NCBI GenBank assembly: GCA_026982335.1
Contig: JALSHH010000044.1
Location: 85 to 64,084, forward strand
Direction of reading: 5' to 3'
DNA length: 64,000 bases
DNA from: Phycisphaerales bacterium
GTDB lineage: Bacteria; Planctomycetota; Phycisphaerae; Phycisphaerales; UBA1924
The position numbers were made by a program, and so were the translations under genes. A model generated the notes under the pieces. It made no database searches. It had not been told where the DNA came from and saw only the letters and a list, made by a program, of their open reading frames with translations. Below, piece after piece: positions 18,352-43,776 of the stretch (positions are counted from its first letter, which is position 1; each line of letters begins with the position of its first letter).

Positions 18352-18603
18352 CTATTTCGCCCGTTTCTCCGCTGTTTTCGGACGCTTGAGCAACCAACCC
18401 ACGGTGAAACCAATGAGTGAGAAGATCAAAAAGAGGATTGCTGCGGGAAGCTCAGCCTTCCAGAAGAAAATATCAATCGGCATCGAATCCCAGTTCTGGA
18501 AGATCAGGATCAAGAAAATCACCCCGGCGATCATTGAAACGATGAACTTGGGACGAGTATACATCGGCTTCTTGTTCTTGATTGGCTCTGGTATGTCGGT
18601 CAT
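18352..18603 (-). CDS. LapA-domain (DUF1049) small inner-membrane protein
   Basis: 83 aa with two TM helices, reading ...[42 protein letters not shown]. It overlaps the scoA stop by 4 nt. Confidence 0.7.
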
Positions 18604-19331
18604 GATGCGCTCACTGTTCGTTGCTCGATCCGCTTCTCGCTCACCGTCTGCACCACCCGATCCACATAGTTGCCCGGCGTATGCACATCATCAGGGTCAA
18701 TCGAACCCGCAGGCACGATCTCATCAACCTCGGCGATGACAAACTTGGCTGCCGTCGCCATGTCGGGGTTGAAGTTGCGGGCGGTGCGGTGGTAGACCAG
18801 ATTTCCAAACTCGTCCGCCTTGGCCGCCTTGACCAATGCGAGATCGCCGAAGAGCCCGGATTCCATAACGAACTCTTTTTCGTAGCCACCATTGGGCACA
18901 GCGAAAGTACGGGTCTCTTTACCATCGGCAACGATCGTGCCCACACCCGTCGCGGTATAAAACGCCGGAATGCCCGCGCCCCCCGCGCGGACGCGCTCGG
19001 CCAGTGTACCCTGAGGATTGAACTCGACTTCGAGCTCATCATTGAGGTACTGGCGGGCGAACTCGTCGTTCTCGCCGACATAGCTCGAAATCATTTTCTT
19101 GATCTGCTTGGTCGCCAGCAAAAGCCCGAGTCCCCAGTCATCAACACCGGCATTGTTCGAGACGCAGGTGATGTCCTTCACGCCGGTATCGCGCAAAGCG
19201 ATGATAAGGTGTTCGGGGATGCCACAGAGTCCAAATCCGCCGACCATGCACATCATGTTGTCTTTGAGGATGCCCATCCCGGCGAGGCCTTTGAAGCAGT
19301 CGGCGGGGGTTGGACAGACTTTGGATGCCAT
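18600..19331 (-). CDS. scoA: 3-oxoacid CoA-transferase subunit A
   Basis: [14 protein letters not shown]...VSNNAG...SYVGEN...[24 protein letters not shown]. The start is taken at MASKV (ATG 19331). Confidence 0.93.
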
Positions 19332-19417
19332 GGGTGTGCCTTTCGGAAGGGGATGCGATATACGGGAATGATATGCAATGGTGTTGCGGAAGACCAAATC
19401 CACAGAACAGGGCATTC

Positions 19418-19497
19418 AACGAGCCGCGACCGTAAGGGAGCGGTCTTTTCTGTCGCTCAAGAAAAGCAAGACCGCTCCCATACGGTCGCGGCTCGTT
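19418..19497. repeat. 80-bp palindromic REP/MITE-like element (intact copy)
   Basis: Left arm is AACGAGCCGCGACCGTAAGGGAGCGGTCTT (19418-19447) and right arm is AAGACCGCTCCCATACGGTCGCGGCTCGTT (19468-19497). The arms are 29 of 30 complementary, and the inner CTTTTC/GAAAAG extends the stem. The left arm recurs 29/30 inside valS at 42509-42538. Confidence 0.9.
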
Positions 19498-19510: not shown

Positions 19511-20017
19511 CTATTTCCCCGCCGGTTTGGCGAAAAGCCCTTGCTGGTCGGCGCTGGTCGTTGGGCGGGCGGAGAGATCATCGAGTTCGCGTTGGATGTC
19601 TTCGAGGGTCGAGAGTTGGAGGTGCTCGGTCGCGAACCGAATATAGGCAATCTTGTCCACATCGCGGAGCTTGGTCATCACGCGTTCGCCGACGAGTTGA
19701 GAGGGGACTTCGCGTTCGAACTCACTGTGAAGTTCTTCCTCGACCGTCTCGGCAAGTTTGAGTTTGATATCTTCGGAAATCGGGCGCTTGCCGCAAGCGT
19801 TGGAAACACCCTTCATGATGTTCTCGACCGAGAACGGCACCCGCGAACCATCGCGTTTGACAACCATCAGCCGACCGGCGGGCTCGACGCGTTCGTAGGT
19901 CGTGAATCTGCGTTCGCACTTGAGGCAATGCCGACGACGACGAATGACCGCCCCCCCTTCGGTCGAGCGGGAGTCGATGACTTTGTCCTGGTTGTAACTA
20001 CAGAATGGGCAGATCAT
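19511..20017 (-). CDS. nrdR: Transcriptional repressor NrdR
   Basis: MICPFCSYNQDKVIDSRSTEGGAVIRRRRHCLKCERRFTTYE is the zinc ribbon, followed by an ATP-cone. Confidence 0.96.
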   Translation of the reverse strand: MICPFCSYNQDKVIDSRSTEGGAVIRRRRHCLKCERRFTTYERVEPAGRLMVVKRDGSRVPFSVENIMKGVSNACGKRPISEDIKLKLAETVEEELHSEFEREVPSQLVGERVMTKLRDVDKIAYIRFATEHLQLSTLEDIQRELDDLSARPTTSADQQGLFAKPAGK

Positions 20018-37208: not shown

Positions 37209-38319
37209 TTACCCTCTTTCTGCCCGCTTGCGTTTGAGTTCAGCATCAATAAACTGATCGAGCTCCCCACGATCAAGCACATTGGTCGGGTTGGCTTCGA
37301 CATTGGTGCGGTGATCCTTCACGCGGTTGTCGTAGAGCACATAGCTGCGAATTTGTGCACCCCATCCACGATGTTCGAGCTTGCCGCCCGCAGCCTCGGC
37401 GATGTCGGCAGCCCGTTTTTCTTCTGCCATCTGCTCGAGCTTGGCGGTCAGGATCGCCATCGCCTGCCTACGGTTCTGCTGCTGCTCGCGATGGGTCGAT
37501 GCCAGAATCATGATCCCCGTGGGCTTATGCACCAAGCGCACCGCCGAGGCGACCTTGTTCACATTCTGACCGCCGGGCCCAGATGATCGCGCAAAACAAC
37601 TGATCTCCAAATCCGAATCAGGAATATCAACCTCCGCCTCTTCAAACTCGGGTGTCACATCAACAGTCGCAAAGCTCGTTTGGCGCTTGCCCTGTGCATT
37701 GAAAGGCGACACCCGCGCCAGCCGATGTGTCCCGCGTTCGCAACATAAATACCCAAAGGCGTAAGGACCTTGCACATGCAGCGTGACGGAATCGAGCCCG
37801 ACTTCTGAGCCGTATGATTTCTCGACTTCTTCAACCTTCCACCCTTGGTTCTCGAAGAAGTAGAGATACATCCGAAAGAGCATCTCGCACCAATCGTTGG
37901 CTTCAGTCCCACCATCGCCAGCCGAGATGGTGAAGAAGCAATCCTTAGTATCGTGTTTACCCGAGAGCAATGATTGCGTTTCGATCTTGTCCATCCGCTT
38001 CATGAGTTGAAAAAGTTGTTCGTCGGCTTCTTCGAGCAACTCGGCGTCGTTCTCCTCCCGACTCATTTCGTAGGCGACCTGGGCATCTTCAAATTCTTCA
38101 TAGACCGCTTTGATTGGGTCAGTCTGGGCTTTGATGAGTTTTAACTCGGCGATGGTCTTTTTGGCTTCTTCCTGGCTGTTCCAGAAATCCGCTCCGCCCA
38201 TCATTGCTTCGAGTTCTTGAAGTCGCGTTCGTTTGTTTTCATAGTCAAAGAGACTCACGGATCGTTAAAATCCGCGCCTCAAGCTCGCTGATCACATTGT
38301 GATGTGCTTCAAAATGCAT
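37209..38319 (-). CDS. prfB: Peptide chain release factor 2, expressed via programmed +1 frameshift
   Basis: Frame 0 reads ATG 38319 ... MHFEAHHNVISELEARILTIRESL then TGA. The +1 frame continues DYENKRTRLQELE... through the SPF-region and GGQ motif (SSGPGGQNVNK) to 37209. Confidence 0.95.
38244..38250 (-). promoter_or_regulatory. prfB: prfB +1 frameshift site CTT TGA C
   Basis: Plus-strand GTCAAAG is CTTTGAC on the coding strand, identical to the canonical RF2 autoregulatory recoding site. Confidence 0.9.
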
Positions 38320-39888: not shown

Positions 39889-42800
39889 ATGACCACGGAC
39901 GCCCCCCAACCCGCTGCCAAATCACCTGCCAAAGACCCCATGAGCAAGTCCTACGCCCCGGCAGACCACGAAGCCCGGATCTGGGATACATGGATCGCAG
40001 CCAACGCCTTCCACGCTGATCCAAACCGCGTTCTCTCAGGCGAAGCCTTACCTTACTGCATCCTCATCCCTCCACCCAATGTAACCGCTGCCCTGCATTT
40101 GGGGCACGCCTTGAACAACTCGATTCAGGACATCCTCATCCGCGCCCATCGCATGAAAGGCTACGAAACCCTCTGGATGCCTGGCACCGACCACGCCGGC
40201 ATCGCCACCCAGACCATGGTGGATAAAAAACTCAAAGAAGAAGGCAAACCCGGTATCGCCGACTACAAAAAAATGGAGCTCGAAGGCAAAACTGATTCGG
40301 ACGGAAAGTCTGGGCGAGAGCAGTTCCTCAAACTCGTCGACAACTTCAGGGATGAATACGAAGCCCGCATCACCCATCAACTCCAAAAAATGGGATGCTC
40401 GTGCGACTGGAAACGCCAACGCTTCACCATGGACGACATCTGCGCCCGCGCCGTCCGCGAGGCCTTCTTTCAACTCTTCAAAGACGGGCTCATCTACCGC
40501 GGCAAGCGCCTCGTCAACTGGGACCCCGTGACCCAAACCGCACTGGCGGACGACGAAGTCGAGATGGAAGAAATCGAAGGATATTTCTATTACCTCCGCT
40601 ACCCACTCGTCCAAGACAATCCAGAAGACCCCACGATCCCCGTCACTTGGGAGCAGCTTGTCACACGCGGCTACCCCGATGCTGAAAACCACCCCGAGGA
40701 CGAACAAGCCTGGATCACCGTCGCCACCACCCGCCCTGAAACCTACATGGGTGACACCGCCGTGGCCATCAATCCCAAAGACCCTCGCGCCCCAGCGGTG
40801 CGAGGCTTCAAAATCATGCTCCCACTGGTCGGACGCATCATCCCAATCATTGAAGACGACTATGTCGTCCTCCCCGTCAAATACGGCGGCCAGCCTGGCG
40901 ATACCAAGGCAGAAATGTCCACCGGATTCCTCAAAGTCACTCCGGCCCACGACCAGAACGACTGGATGATCGGACAACGCCACAACCTCGACCCCATCAA
41001 CATCATGGCTCCCGACGCGTCCATCTCCGATCAGCACGGGTGGGAAGACATCGGTGACGCCCACATCTTCGTTGGCAAATCCCGCGAGGAGGCTCGCGAG
41101 TTGGTCATCAAAGAGTTCAAATCTCGAAGTGTCGCCGAAGGTTCCGAAGGCTCACTGCTCGAGAAAATAGTCCCCTACACCCACAGTGTCGGTCATTCGT
41201 ATCGCAGCCACGCCGCCGTCGAGCCGTACTTGAGTGACCAGTGGTACTGCAAAGTGAGCGACGACAAACTCCGAGGCAACGCCCAACGCGCATTGGTTCC
41301 CGAGCAACGGACGAACGCTTCGATAGAAGCGTGGCGCGAATCCGCTCCCTCTTCTCCCGGTAGAACGGGCTTCCAGCCCGTTTCTTCAGTTTCCTCTCCA
41401 TCAACCCCCATCCCCAACAAACTCTCCATCCACAGCCGAAACCTCCCCCACTGGCAACTCGGAAGCAGCACCTACTTCGTCACCTTCCGCGCCAAAGAAG
41501 GAACCATAAGCGAGCACGAACGATCACTCGTCCTCGATGCTTGTTTCCATTTTGACAACGACCGAGCCATCGTCCGCCTCGTCACCGTCATGCCCGATCA
41601 TGTCCACATGCTCATTACTCCAAGAAAACTCGGCGAAAATGAGTGGTATCCACTCCAAGACATCATCCACAGCATCAAGAGCTTCACCGCGAATGAAATC
41701 AATCGGAGCAGGAAAGATTCTGGAGCCTTCTGGCAAGCGGAATACTTCGATCGCATTGTGCGTGATGAAGATGAGTTTGAAGAGAAATGGAACTACATGC
41801 TCAACAACCCGGTGAAGGCAGGACTCTGCAAACAACCCGGTGAGTATGTGTGGACACGAAAAGGAGAAAATCAAATAAGAAACGGGCTGGAAGCCTGTTC
41901 TACCGGGGAATCGACCGATGGCACCATGTCCTTCTTCCCCGCCCGCTACGCCAAAACCTACGAAACCTGGCACGACAACCTCCGAGACTGGTGCATCAGC
42001 CGACAACTCTGGTGGGGACATCGGATTCCGGTTTGGAATGGTTCCGTTGGTGGATCTGTCGAAAAACTTGATCGATTTGAATCCACCATGGTTAAGTGGT
42101 GGCGAGAAGGCAAACTAACTTCCCAACTTACGATTGACCCAACCGATCCAAATCCACCACTGAGCAACGATGGAAAACCATTAATTGGGCAAGAGATCGC
42201 TGTTTGCGTTAGGAATCAGAACGACAGTGAAATCATTGAGTTCTTAGAGGAGTACGGCTTTACTCAAGACCCCGATGTCCTCGACACCTGGTTCTCCTCC
42301 GCGCTCTGGCCGCTCTCGACCATGGGCTGGCCAGACGCAACCGCAGCCAAAGCCTCCACCGGCATCGAAGATTTCGAGTCCATGCTCGAAGCCTTCAACC
42401 CGAGTTCCGTGTTGACCACGGCGCGTGAGATCATCACGCTATGGGTGTCGCGGATGACGATGTTCAATCGGTACTTTCTCAGTGAAGATTCCCAACAAAC
42501 CGACTCCCAACGAGCCGCGACCGTAAGGGAGCGATCTTCGAGTTCTCTCGCATCTCAGGAAGAAAAGACCACTTGCTCACACGCGAAGCTCATTGGCCCT
42601 GCCCCCTTCAAAGATGTCTTCATCCACGCCATGATCCAAGACGGCGAAGGACGCAAGATGTCCAAGTCGCTGGGCAACGGTGTCGACCCCCTCGACATCA
42701 TCCACTCCCACGGCGCCGACGCCATGCGATTCACGCTCTGCCAAATGACCACGCAGACCCAAGATGTCCGCATGCCTGTCGTCTGCGATGAGGAAACAGG

Positions 42801-43776
42801 AAAAAATACCTCACCTAAGTTTGATCTGGGACGCAACCTGTGCAACAAACTCTGGAACGCTGCCAAGTTCTCGATGATGATGCTCGAAAAGAACCCGATC
42901 GAGCAAGGGCCACCAATTGATCCACAAGAGTTGACCTTGATTGACCGGTGGATGCTCTCGCGTGTGGTCGATGCGACCAACAAAATCAACACCGCCCAAT
43001 GCAACTACATGTTCAAGGATTACGCCGACACTTTGTACGATTTGTTCTGGCGAGATTTCTGTGATTGGTACCTCGAGTCGATCAAGCCAACCATCGCCGA
43101 CGATCCAAACCAGCGGGCAGTGTTGAGGATCGTTTTCGAATCCATCCTCCGCCTCATGCACCCGGTCATGCCCTTCATCACCGAGACCCTGAGCGAACGC
43201 TTCGCAGATATTCCGATGAACGAGATCATGGGGTTTGGCTTTGCACCGACCAAATCAAACCAGACCCTTTGTCAGTCCGGTTGGCCTGAGCCTGATGATG
43301 AGTTGCGCGATGAGGTCGCTGAAGAGGCCTACGAGCGGATTCGTTCGTTGGTCTCGACCATCCGCGAGGTTCGTGCTCAATCACAGGTCGCGCCCAAGCG
43401 TCGGATTGTTCTGCACGCATCGGGACCACTCGCTGAGGATATCGCTCGGTGGTCGCCTTTGATCGAAACCCTCGCCGGCGTCGAATCGGTCACCGGCGAT
43501 GAACCCGCAAGCCCATCGGCAAGCTTCACCTTTGAAGGCTGCGAATACCAGCTCTCGAATCTCGCCGACGCACTCGATGCCCGAGCCGAAAAAGATCGGC
43601 TCGAAAAAGAACTCGCTTCGATCGAAAAATCAATCAAAGGCATCCAAGGGCGACTCGCCAACCCAGGCTACACCGAAAAAGCCCCCGCCCACCTCGTCCA
43701 ACAGACCCGCGATCAGCTCGCACAACTCGAGAAAGACCGCAACGCGACCCAATCTGCATTGGATAAACTCCGATGA
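39889..43776 (+). CDS. valS: Valyl-tRNA synthetase carrying two in-frame mobile-DNA insertions
   Basis: [14 protein letters not shown] (HIGH), CP1 editing domain, [32 protein letters not shown] and a C-terminal coiled coil. It is 1295 aa versus 951 aa for E. coli ValRS. Confidence 0.95.
   Translation: [1295 protein letters not shown]
41357..41906 (+). mobile_element. IS200/RAYT-type Y1 (HUH) transposase module flanked by hairpin inverted repeats, in frame within valS
   Basis: Left repeat is CCGGTAGAACGGGCTTCCAGCCCGTTTCT (41357-41385) and right repeat is AGAAACGGGCTGGAAGCCTGTTCTACCGG (41878-41906), 28 of 29 complementary. Between them lie [41 protein letters not shown] and [13 protein letters not shown]. 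Confidence 0.85.
42509..42592 (+). repeat. Decayed copy of the 19418..19497 palindromic element, in frame within valS
   Basis: AACGAGCCGCGACCGTAAGGGAGCGATCTT (42509-42538) matches the intergenic left arm 29/30. The following AGAAAAG..AGACC... is a degenerate right arm. It encodes ...[25 protein letters not shown]... between the MTMFNRYF and [11 protein letters not shown] segments. Confidence 0.8.

Follow-up and report, generated by a model that had tools for sequence, protein, structure and literature searches.

We analyzed a 64,000-nt stretch of DNA from a Phycisphaerales bacterium (assembly GCA_026982335.1, contig JALSHH010000044.1, positions 85 to 64,084 of the forward strand; hereafter the window), in which valS, the gene for valyl-tRNA synthetase (ValRS), contains in frame a REP-associated tyrosine transposase (RAYT) bracketed by two repetitive extragenic palindromic (REP) hairpins. 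A sequence-only reading of this DNA had described valS as one unbroken open reading frame (ORF) of 1295 codons, and this is borne out, the frame being free of stop codons. The product matches the curated valine–tRNA ligase equivalog NF004349 with 900 bits (cut-off, 704), and profile searches recover the class I catalytic domain in two parts, the anticodon-binding domain (PF08264), and the C-terminal arm (PF10458). The signature motifs are intact, HIGH being present as HLGH (40096–40107) and KMSKS lying at 42655–42669. The gene order at the locus, prfB – small ORF – TPR gene – valS – DUF1570 gene, is also found at orthologous loci whose valS lacks the insert (empty sites).

The REP–RAYT–REP unit in valS

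Alignment with orthologs, which the sequence-only reading had proposed, gave an exact insertion point (Table 1) and an empty-site relative. Boundaries were set by DNA comparison with this relative, L007 (GCA_054018715.1), the closest ortholog with an empty site, whose valS is ~93% identical to that of the window at the nucleotide level and lies in the same neighborhood. In L007, ...GAATCTGCACCA is followed by AGA and ACCGATGGC..., whereas in the window ...GAATCCGCTCCC is followed by an inserted segment that opens with TCTTCT CCCGGTAGAACGGGCTTCCAGCCCGTTTCTT and closes with AAGAAACGGGCTGGAAGCCTGTTCTACCGGG GAATCG, after which ACCGATGGC... resumes. The net gain relative to L007 is 187 codons, close to the roughly 200 that had been estimated. 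The downstream flank is identical to L007 at 60 of 60 positions; the ~40 nt upstream of the insert are unusually diverged, far more than the rest of the gene. A further hairpin had been noted in this upstream segment, and it folds at −8.7 kcal/mol (z, −2.7). The strings GAATCC and GAATCG, which flank the unit and match perfectly in the related locus L002, were considered as a target-site duplication, but similar strings occur in empty alleles, and the candidate is therefore unconvincing.

Table 1. Positions of the features of the valS locus in the window
Feature	Positions	Strand	Description
valS	39889..43776	+	Host gene; 1295-aa ORF running through the insert
Window-specific hairpin	41315..41332	+	ACGCTTC GATA GAAGCGT, translated NASIEAW; in the diverged ~40 nt upstream of the element
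Whole inserted unit	41350..41913	+	564 nt in place of one AGA codon of the empty L007 allele
Left REP, inverted-repeat arm	41356..41386	+	GTAG foot at 41360–41363, hairpin at 41364–41382; translated PGRTGFQPVS
Linker, Ser/Pro-rich	41387..41436	+	Joins the left REP to the RAYT core; length and sequence variable among relatives
RAYT (HUH/Y1) catalytic core, aa 517–656	41437..41856	+	140-aa domain, recognized by profiles, motifs, and fold
Right REP, inverted copy	41877..41907	-	One stem mismatch; + strand translation RNGLEACST
valS site 2, in-frame insertion site	42481..42594	+	Between YFL and GPAPFKD, near KMSKS; decayed class-3-type REP relic

Inverted repeats of 29 nt, complementary at 28 of 29 positions, had been reported at the two ends of the module, and the search tool extends these arms to 31 nt (97% complementary). 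Both arms are hairpins with a GTAG foot (GGTAGAAC-GGGC-TTC-GCCC...); the stem is 8 bp long, and the foot lies on each outer side. Folded as single-stranded DNA (ssDNA), the left REP pairs over 8 bp around a 3-nt loop (−8.9 kcal/mol; z, −4.6). Within the 64-kb window, the hairpin core occurs solely as the two flanking copies, with 0.00 to 0.01 matches expected by chance.

As the sequence-only reading had stated, the stretch from the left boundary to the Met that precedes the HUH motif is devoid of ATG, GTG, and TTG codons in frame, and the insert contains no stop codon; a start codon in frame before the first RAYT strand was found in none of the six filled valS loci examined. Because the unit has neither a start nor a stop codon of its own, it is translatable solely as an internal part of ValRS.

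The core of the insert exceeds the curated cut-offs of both transposase profiles that had been suggested for it, namely NCBIfam REP_Tyr_transpos NF047646 (91 bits, cut-off 80, model positions 5–145 of 146) and Pfam Y1_Tnp PF01797 (30 bits, cut-off 23). The transposase motifs listed in the earlier reading were all found: NLPHWQ, DHVH (41596–41607, aa 570–573; the HUH triplet H-V-H occupies 41599–41607), and YMLNNP (41794–41811, aa 636–641), which is the Tyr motif of the Y-x3-NP helix. DHVH and YMLNNP align with PEHMH and YIYINP of Escherichia coli TnpA_REP (PDB entry 4ER8). A direct search of the insert sequence against PDB chains gave no match, and profile and fold searches were required. A profile of free-standing relatives matches 4ER8 with an E-value of 6.5e-9, the HUH and Tyr motifs being aligned, and a Foldseek search with a model of the insert alone returned 4ER8_A as best match (E-value 2.8e-8, TM-score 0.69, root mean square deviation 2.7 Å), followed by the ISDra2, IS608, and IS200 transposases. 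By score, motifs, fold, and flanking inverted GTAG REPs, the insert is a member of the RAYT family.

An AlphaFold model of ValRS residues 1–1190, made with 81 aligned ValRS sequences, has a mean predicted local distance difference test score (pLDDT) of 83.9. The RAYT part (residues 513–660) scores above 90. The left REP with the linker (487–503), the right REP (661–673), and the segment at a second insertion site described below as site 2 (870–898) all score below 50. The rest of the ValRS model has Thermus thermophilus ValRS (1GAX) as its best structural match. Structure prediction, which had been proposed as a way to see whether the insert would form a separate domain, thus yields a confidently modeled HUH domain on two low-confidence linkers. 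Hence, the insert is predicted to be an independent HUH domain on two flexible tethers, these being the translated REP hairpins themselves (GRTGFQPVSS... and ...NGLEACST). Alignment with the E. coli and T. thermophilus enzymes would place the insertion loop between the editing domain and the second half of the Rossmann fold.

Other classes of element were considered and rejected. The score against the IS200/IS605 TnpA family proper (NF033573) is 22 bits, compared with a cut-off of 55, and the unit ends in two inverted copies of one REP, arranged symmetrically. Searches of Pfam and NCBIfam gave no Hint or intein family, and the junctions (...ESAP/SSPG... and ...TGES/TDGT...) lack splicing residues. 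A self-splicing intron or IStron was likewise rejected, as no Rfam family reached its gathering threshold and positions 41100–42100 gave just two chance-level matches with E-values up to 1.

Recurrence, selection, and history

A scan of species-representative genomes gave five related valS loci. L002 shares the window's RAYT at this valS codon; L003 has there a different RAYT with different REPs (peptides GGPARRAGS and EPGSASRAT), and L006 has a class-3 Y1 transposase (NHVH ... YVLDEQ; REP peptides EPRPSGSG and LPHGRGS). In two of the five, the site is empty. The site was also scored in the 120 closest ValRS proteins by the distance between two conserved flanking anchors, which is bimodal (50–64 or 173–289 aa). 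An insert stands at the same codon in 51 of the 120, a figure that is an upper estimate for reasons given below. The census comprises 68 empty sites, 1 solo REP, 39 inserts of type A, 6 of type B, 4 of type C, and 2 copies of an unknown domain of ~125 aa, types A and B being two RAYT families and type C a class-3 Y1 transposase. All 51 inserts are in frame. Both the HUH and the Tyr motif are kept in 44 of the 45 RAYT inserts, the exception being the type-A protein P0238, which has a degraded HUH motif (DHVL). The left and right REP peptides derive from reverse complements of each other, and their types agree in 36 of 39 type-A inserts (GTGFQPV with GLEARPT, GTGVPPV with RRDACAT). This co-variation shows constraint or renewal at the DNA level, for which ValRS has no use. 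A tblastn search of the window with types A to D gave no further RAYT copies. As a separate observation, the unknown domain of P0136 and P0174 is unrelated to the other inserts at this codon and has no HUH motif, no recognizable REP peptides, and no Pfam or NCBIfam match.

Nested RAYTs were also found in other proteins. In an exhaustive search across 1.84 billion representative proteins, 70 matched the insert below 1e-30, and more than half of the best matches were internal domains of longer proteins. A word-indexed protein search with the insert alone returned free-standing RAYTs only and missed all nested ones, even the query's own protein. According to Pfam, the hosts include ValRS, RdgB/Ham1, PurH, PriA, alanyl-tRNA synthetase (AlaRS), and DnaK, as well as S-adenosylmethionine-dependent methyltransferases, a 4Fe-4S protein, restriction-modification enzymes, and a LOG-family protein; the RdgB/Ham1 hosts are many and are broken at the same profile position. 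Among 28 nested RAYT proteins studied in detail, the HUH motif is present in all and the Tyr motif was found by pattern in all but one, and most have recognizable REP-derived peptides on one or both sides. In a rough tree, the RAYT cores tend to cluster by host gene, with ValRS, Ham1, and PurH clades and few jumps. Traces of this architecture exist in current annotation: one protein carries the name [quoted passage not shown] and of the filled ValRS proteins one is labeled “REP-associated tyrosine transposase,” others being entered as “class I tRNA ligase family protein.” The window insert is one case of a clade-wide, recurrent phenomenon, present in dozens of related marine Phycisphaerales, that involves several transposase families at one codon and several host genes.

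The ratio of nonsynonymous to synonymous substitution rates (dN/dS) of valS outside the insert is ~0.10 relative to L007. For the RAYT core, it is 0.08 relative to L002, and 0.13 and 0.07 relative to the filled loci L008 and L009, respectively; the core is thus under purifying selection. In the comparison with L002, the synonymous rate (dS) of the insert is 0.87; flanking valS is at or near saturation, with a proportion of synonymous differences (pS) of 0.67–0.82 and a dS of ~1.7 or not computable. Relative to L008 and L009, insert and flanking valS are similar in dS, and the value for L008 fits an old residence of the unit. In a ValRS tree (neighbor-joining, variable sites masked), alleles with and without an insert, and those with inserts of different families, alternate even within groups of very closely related proteins; P0122 (type A), P0129 (type B), and P0136 (unknown domain), for instance, are tips of very short branches. 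RAYT identity correlates weakly with host identity (Spearman 0.21), and hosts at least 90% identical may carry RAYTs that are just 53% identical. These data indicate that at the valS codon the unit has in part persisted vertically and in part been lost, gained, and replaced again and again. The string AGAAC, found in L007 where the site is empty, coincides with the foot of the REP and may have been left behind by a deletion.

The REP itself is widespread. Among the matches listed, more than 119 stretches of JGI metagenome contigs contain the exact 24-nt core GGTAGAACGGGCTTCCAGCCCGTT, often with several copies on the same large contig (at least 11 on one contig of 1.5 Mb) and mostly as inverted doublets 42–69 nt apart, which is the signature of the REP doublets known as REPINs. 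Within this set, a long ORF spanning the REP is absent for about 100 of 120 copies and present for 20, and 13 of these 20 are read in the same frame as in valS. Taken directly from the sequence, five of the six reading frames of the REP are stop-free, the closed one reading the TAG of the GTAG foot. In free-standing RAYT relatives (~50% identical, 150–210 aa), the left REP is annotated inside the N-terminal coding region in the same frame (GGTGFQPV), and some of them also read through the right REP. The whole REP–RAYT–REP unit would be an open frame even when free-standing and hence appears pre-adapted to in-frame nesting. On four JGI metagenome contigs (L020, L041, L056, and L113), an identical 24-nt REP flanks free-standing RAYTs ~48% identical to that of the window, and across distant lineages the REP is thus much better conserved than the transposase that it flanks.

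A second site in valS, site 2, also takes up such sequences in frame. In relatives it measures 14–19 aa when empty and holds an in-frame REP doublet of 40–65 aa when filled, the doublet being mostly of the same type as the RAYT at the main site (site 1). L002 and P0123 have at site 2 a REP doublet of the type that flanks the window's RAYT, and in P0182 the RAYT itself is at site 2 and site 1 is empty. The window retains a relic there, with a REP core at 42512–42536 translated as QRAATVRER; its type differs from that of the site-1 transposase, which suggests a mosaic history. Comparison of L002, L003, L006, and L007 also revealed REP doublets of three families at the same site-2 codon in different relatives.

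Interpretation and rival explanations

The REP–RAYT–REP unit, lodged in frame and in sense orientation in a surface loop of what we take to be the single functional valS, is probably a selfish or commensal element that is sheltered by an essential gene and translated as an extra surface domain. The central claim of the sequence-only reading, a complete RAYT module with REP hairpins in frame in valS, is supported by sequence, profile, fold, and repeats, and the tolerated selfish insertion is the best fit of the three options that it offered. ValRS would tolerate the extra domain and stay active, and the fusion would retain RAYT activity, that is, single-strand cleavage and joining at REP hairpins, with which it could serve a dispersed REP/REPIN population in trans. 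We infer that the fusion protein is produced and that both halves are active. Nesting in an essential gene would give the element constitutive expression and would shield it from decay by frameshift, nonsense, or imprecise-deletion mutations, since such mutations would kill the host. Gain, loss, and replacement could proceed through exchange of valS alleles by homologous recombination, through RAYT-mediated excision and integration, or through both.

Some observations weigh against this view. The argument for an active fusion is one from conservation, and a second valS might lie elsewhere in the genome, the window covering part of one contig. This REP type occurs only twice in the 64 kb, with a stem mismatch in the right copy, and a live REPIN population in this genome is thus unsupported. 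The dS values relative to L008 and L009 fit plain vertical inheritance, and the case for horizontal movement draws mainly on the comparison with L002 and on the patchy distribution. The trees are neighbor-joining trees without support values. Finally, the count of filled alleles is inflated, because the query included the RAYT, which raised distant filled ValRS proteins in the ranking.

A domesticated domain was another of the options on offer: the HUH domain could have been recruited by ValRS, for example for binding of nucleic acid hairpins or for regulation, and no longer act as a transposase. The strong purifying selection on the RAYT core, the confidence with which an independent fold is predicted, and the long persistence in some deep Phycisphaerales lineages would suit such an exaptation. 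We nevertheless regard it as unlikely, given that occurrence is patchy among near-identical valS alleles, that unrelated insert types, one of them non-HUH, share the codon, and that like inserts are found in unrelated host proteins. In addition, both flanking REP hairpins are kept and co-vary as DNA, which is useless to ValRS, and the nuclease residues are retained in 44 of 45 inserts. Removal of the insert before the enzyme matures, be it by protein splicing, RNA processing, ribosomal bypass, or excision of the DNA in most cells, seems to us less probable still. Its attraction is that the 31-nt inverted repeats could pair in RNA or ssDNA and so join the flanks. IS200/IS605-type transposases excise precisely, which provides a precedent. 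Against it stand the lack of a Hint or intein family in Pfam and NCBIfam, a junction without His-Asn plus Cys/Ser/Thr, and the lack of an intron or other RNA family in the region. Moreover, the open frame is strictly kept in 51 of 51 inserts, which would be needless if the insert were removed as RNA or DNA, and assemblies consistently report the filled allele.

That this valS is a decaying or redundant copy, the work being done by a second, intact valS, is highly improbable. The analysis spans part of one contig rather than whole-genome content, which leaves room for such a copy. However, the neighborhood is the same as that of the sole valS found in relatives, filled and empty alike; the dN/dS outside the insert is 0.10, the catalytic motifs are intact, the 1295 codons are stop-free, and several assemblies have filled alleles on contigs of 3.0–3.1 Mb. 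The dead valS that the sequence-only reading had put forward as its remaining option is disfavored because of the conserved neighborhood and this low dN/dS. A chimeric assembly or gene-calling artifact, a concern that a metagenome contig as source naturally raises, can be set aside for practical purposes: the same junctions and frame recur in dozens of independent assemblies from five data sources (NCBI, JGI, ENA, Tara, and Logan), among them the DNA loci L002, L003, L006, L008, and L009, which were fetched irrespective of gene calls.

Nesting may serve the element as an adaptive strategy, as opposed to being an accident tolerated again and again. Tentatively, and as slightly the weaker bet, we put forward a broader proposal: a guild of Y1/HUH elements, made up of the two RAYT families and the class-3 TnpA_Y1 of Planctomycetes, would use in-frame nesting in essential housekeeping genes as a heritable refuge, with REPs that code for linkers, expression only as fusions, re-invasion of the same codon, and decay blocked by its lethality. 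If so, ValRS, AlaRS, DnaK, PurH, PriA, and RdgB would be among the hosts of an intein-like homing without splicing.

Several known systems resemble parts of this arrangement. Like the REPIN–RAYT systems (E. coli TnpA_REP/YafM, 4ER8; Pseudomonas), the valS unit has the HUH/Y1 fold and motifs and inverted GTAG-footed REP flanks, and the same REP is dispersed as inverted doublets in related genomes. Classical RAYTs, however, are free-standing intergenic genes that are usually single-copy and vertically inherited, whereas the valS RAYT has no start codon, lies in frame in an essential gene, would be made as a fusion only, and is gained, lost, and replaced among close relatives. Palindromes in frame within genes are known as well, namely Rickettsia palindromic elements (RPEs) and GTAG/CGTC REPs in genes including those of tRNA synthetases (Di Nocera et al. 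2013, PMC3733652). These, like the valS repeats, are in-frame palindromes in functional genes that encode short tolerated peptides. Site 2 is exactly such a case, and both flanking REPs and site 2 have the properties of in-frame intragenic repeats of the REP/RPE type, empty orthologs being available. The known inserts, however, are 20–80 aa of repeat sequence with no enzyme, whereas the valS insert contains the transposase gene itself. Quentin et al. (2018, PMC6006769) described REPs that lie in frame within tnpA_REP genes (subclass 2.4) as well as a class-3 TnpA_Y1 family found in Planctomycetes, whose signature (NHVH ... YV..EQ) is that of the type-C inserts at the valS codon. There, repeats are nested in a transposase; in valS, a transposase is nested in a host gene. 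The authors of this Y1 survey took “unexpectedly long proteins” to be fusions or errors of annotation and left them out (PMC6006769).

Inteins with homing endonucleases are likewise selfish nuclease elements in frame in essential housekeeping genes, and they share with nested RAYTs the reuse of the same site, a patchy distribution, and lineages that tend to be specific to a host gene. Unlike inteins, the valS unit has no Hint domain or splicing residues and presumably stays in the mature protein. Its enzyme is a single-strand HUH transposase instead of a LAGLIDADG or HNH endonuclease, and homing, known for inteins, is suggested for the valS unit by analogy. IS200/IS605 TnpA (IS608, ISDra2) has the same fold and chemistry as the valS RAYT, and empty sites could arise by precise excision of the kind that it performs; the ends of IS200/IS605 elements are distinct left and right ends, whereas those of the valS unit are symmetric REPs. 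As in IStrons, insertion into a gene is neutralized, but the valS unit has no intron RNA. Open-access papers and bioRxiv yielded no description of a host gene that contains a RAYT in frame.

RAYTs, transposases present in single copy, last for very long periods, and the means of their maintenance is a matter of debate. If our interpretation is true, a RAYT made only within an essential enzyme would be safe from ordinary inactivation. Mobile DNA would thereby have a new way to persist, one that parallels inteins without any need for splicing. A class I tRNA synthetase and several core enzymes would tolerate a foreign domain of 190 residues at defined loops, and the REP hairpins would double as DNA recognition sites and linker-coding sequence. 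Such proteins would be natural HUH-enzyme fusions, of the kind that biotechnology uses as covalent DNA tags. Nested-RAYT proteins are at present misnamed or discarded.

Other features of the window

A third hypervariable cassette in valS lies at 42040–42255 (aa ~718–789), between WWGHRIPVW and GFTQDPDVL. Here, window and L007 have non-homologous DNA with sharp boundaries, and the flanks are 93–100% identical. The cassette encodes 60–90 aa of sequence particular to each relative examined, all of them sharing just a short (F/Y)(V/I)C motif close to its end; no REP-like peptide was seen in it.

Across the whole 64-kb window, no tRNA genes were found and no Rfam family reached its gathering threshold. 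Positions 19421–19494 hold an intergenic inverted doublet of a class-3-type REP (GAGCCGCGACCGTAAGGGAGCGGTC and its inverted copy), for which the window contains no matching transposase. The doublet sits between a CoA-transferase-like gene (18600–19415, − strand) and an nrdR-like gene (19511–20017, − strand). Upstream of valS, prfB (37209–38318, − strand) has a canonical programmed +1 frameshift site, CTT TGA C, 24 codons past the ATG (38240–38318), which is a known, ordinary feature.

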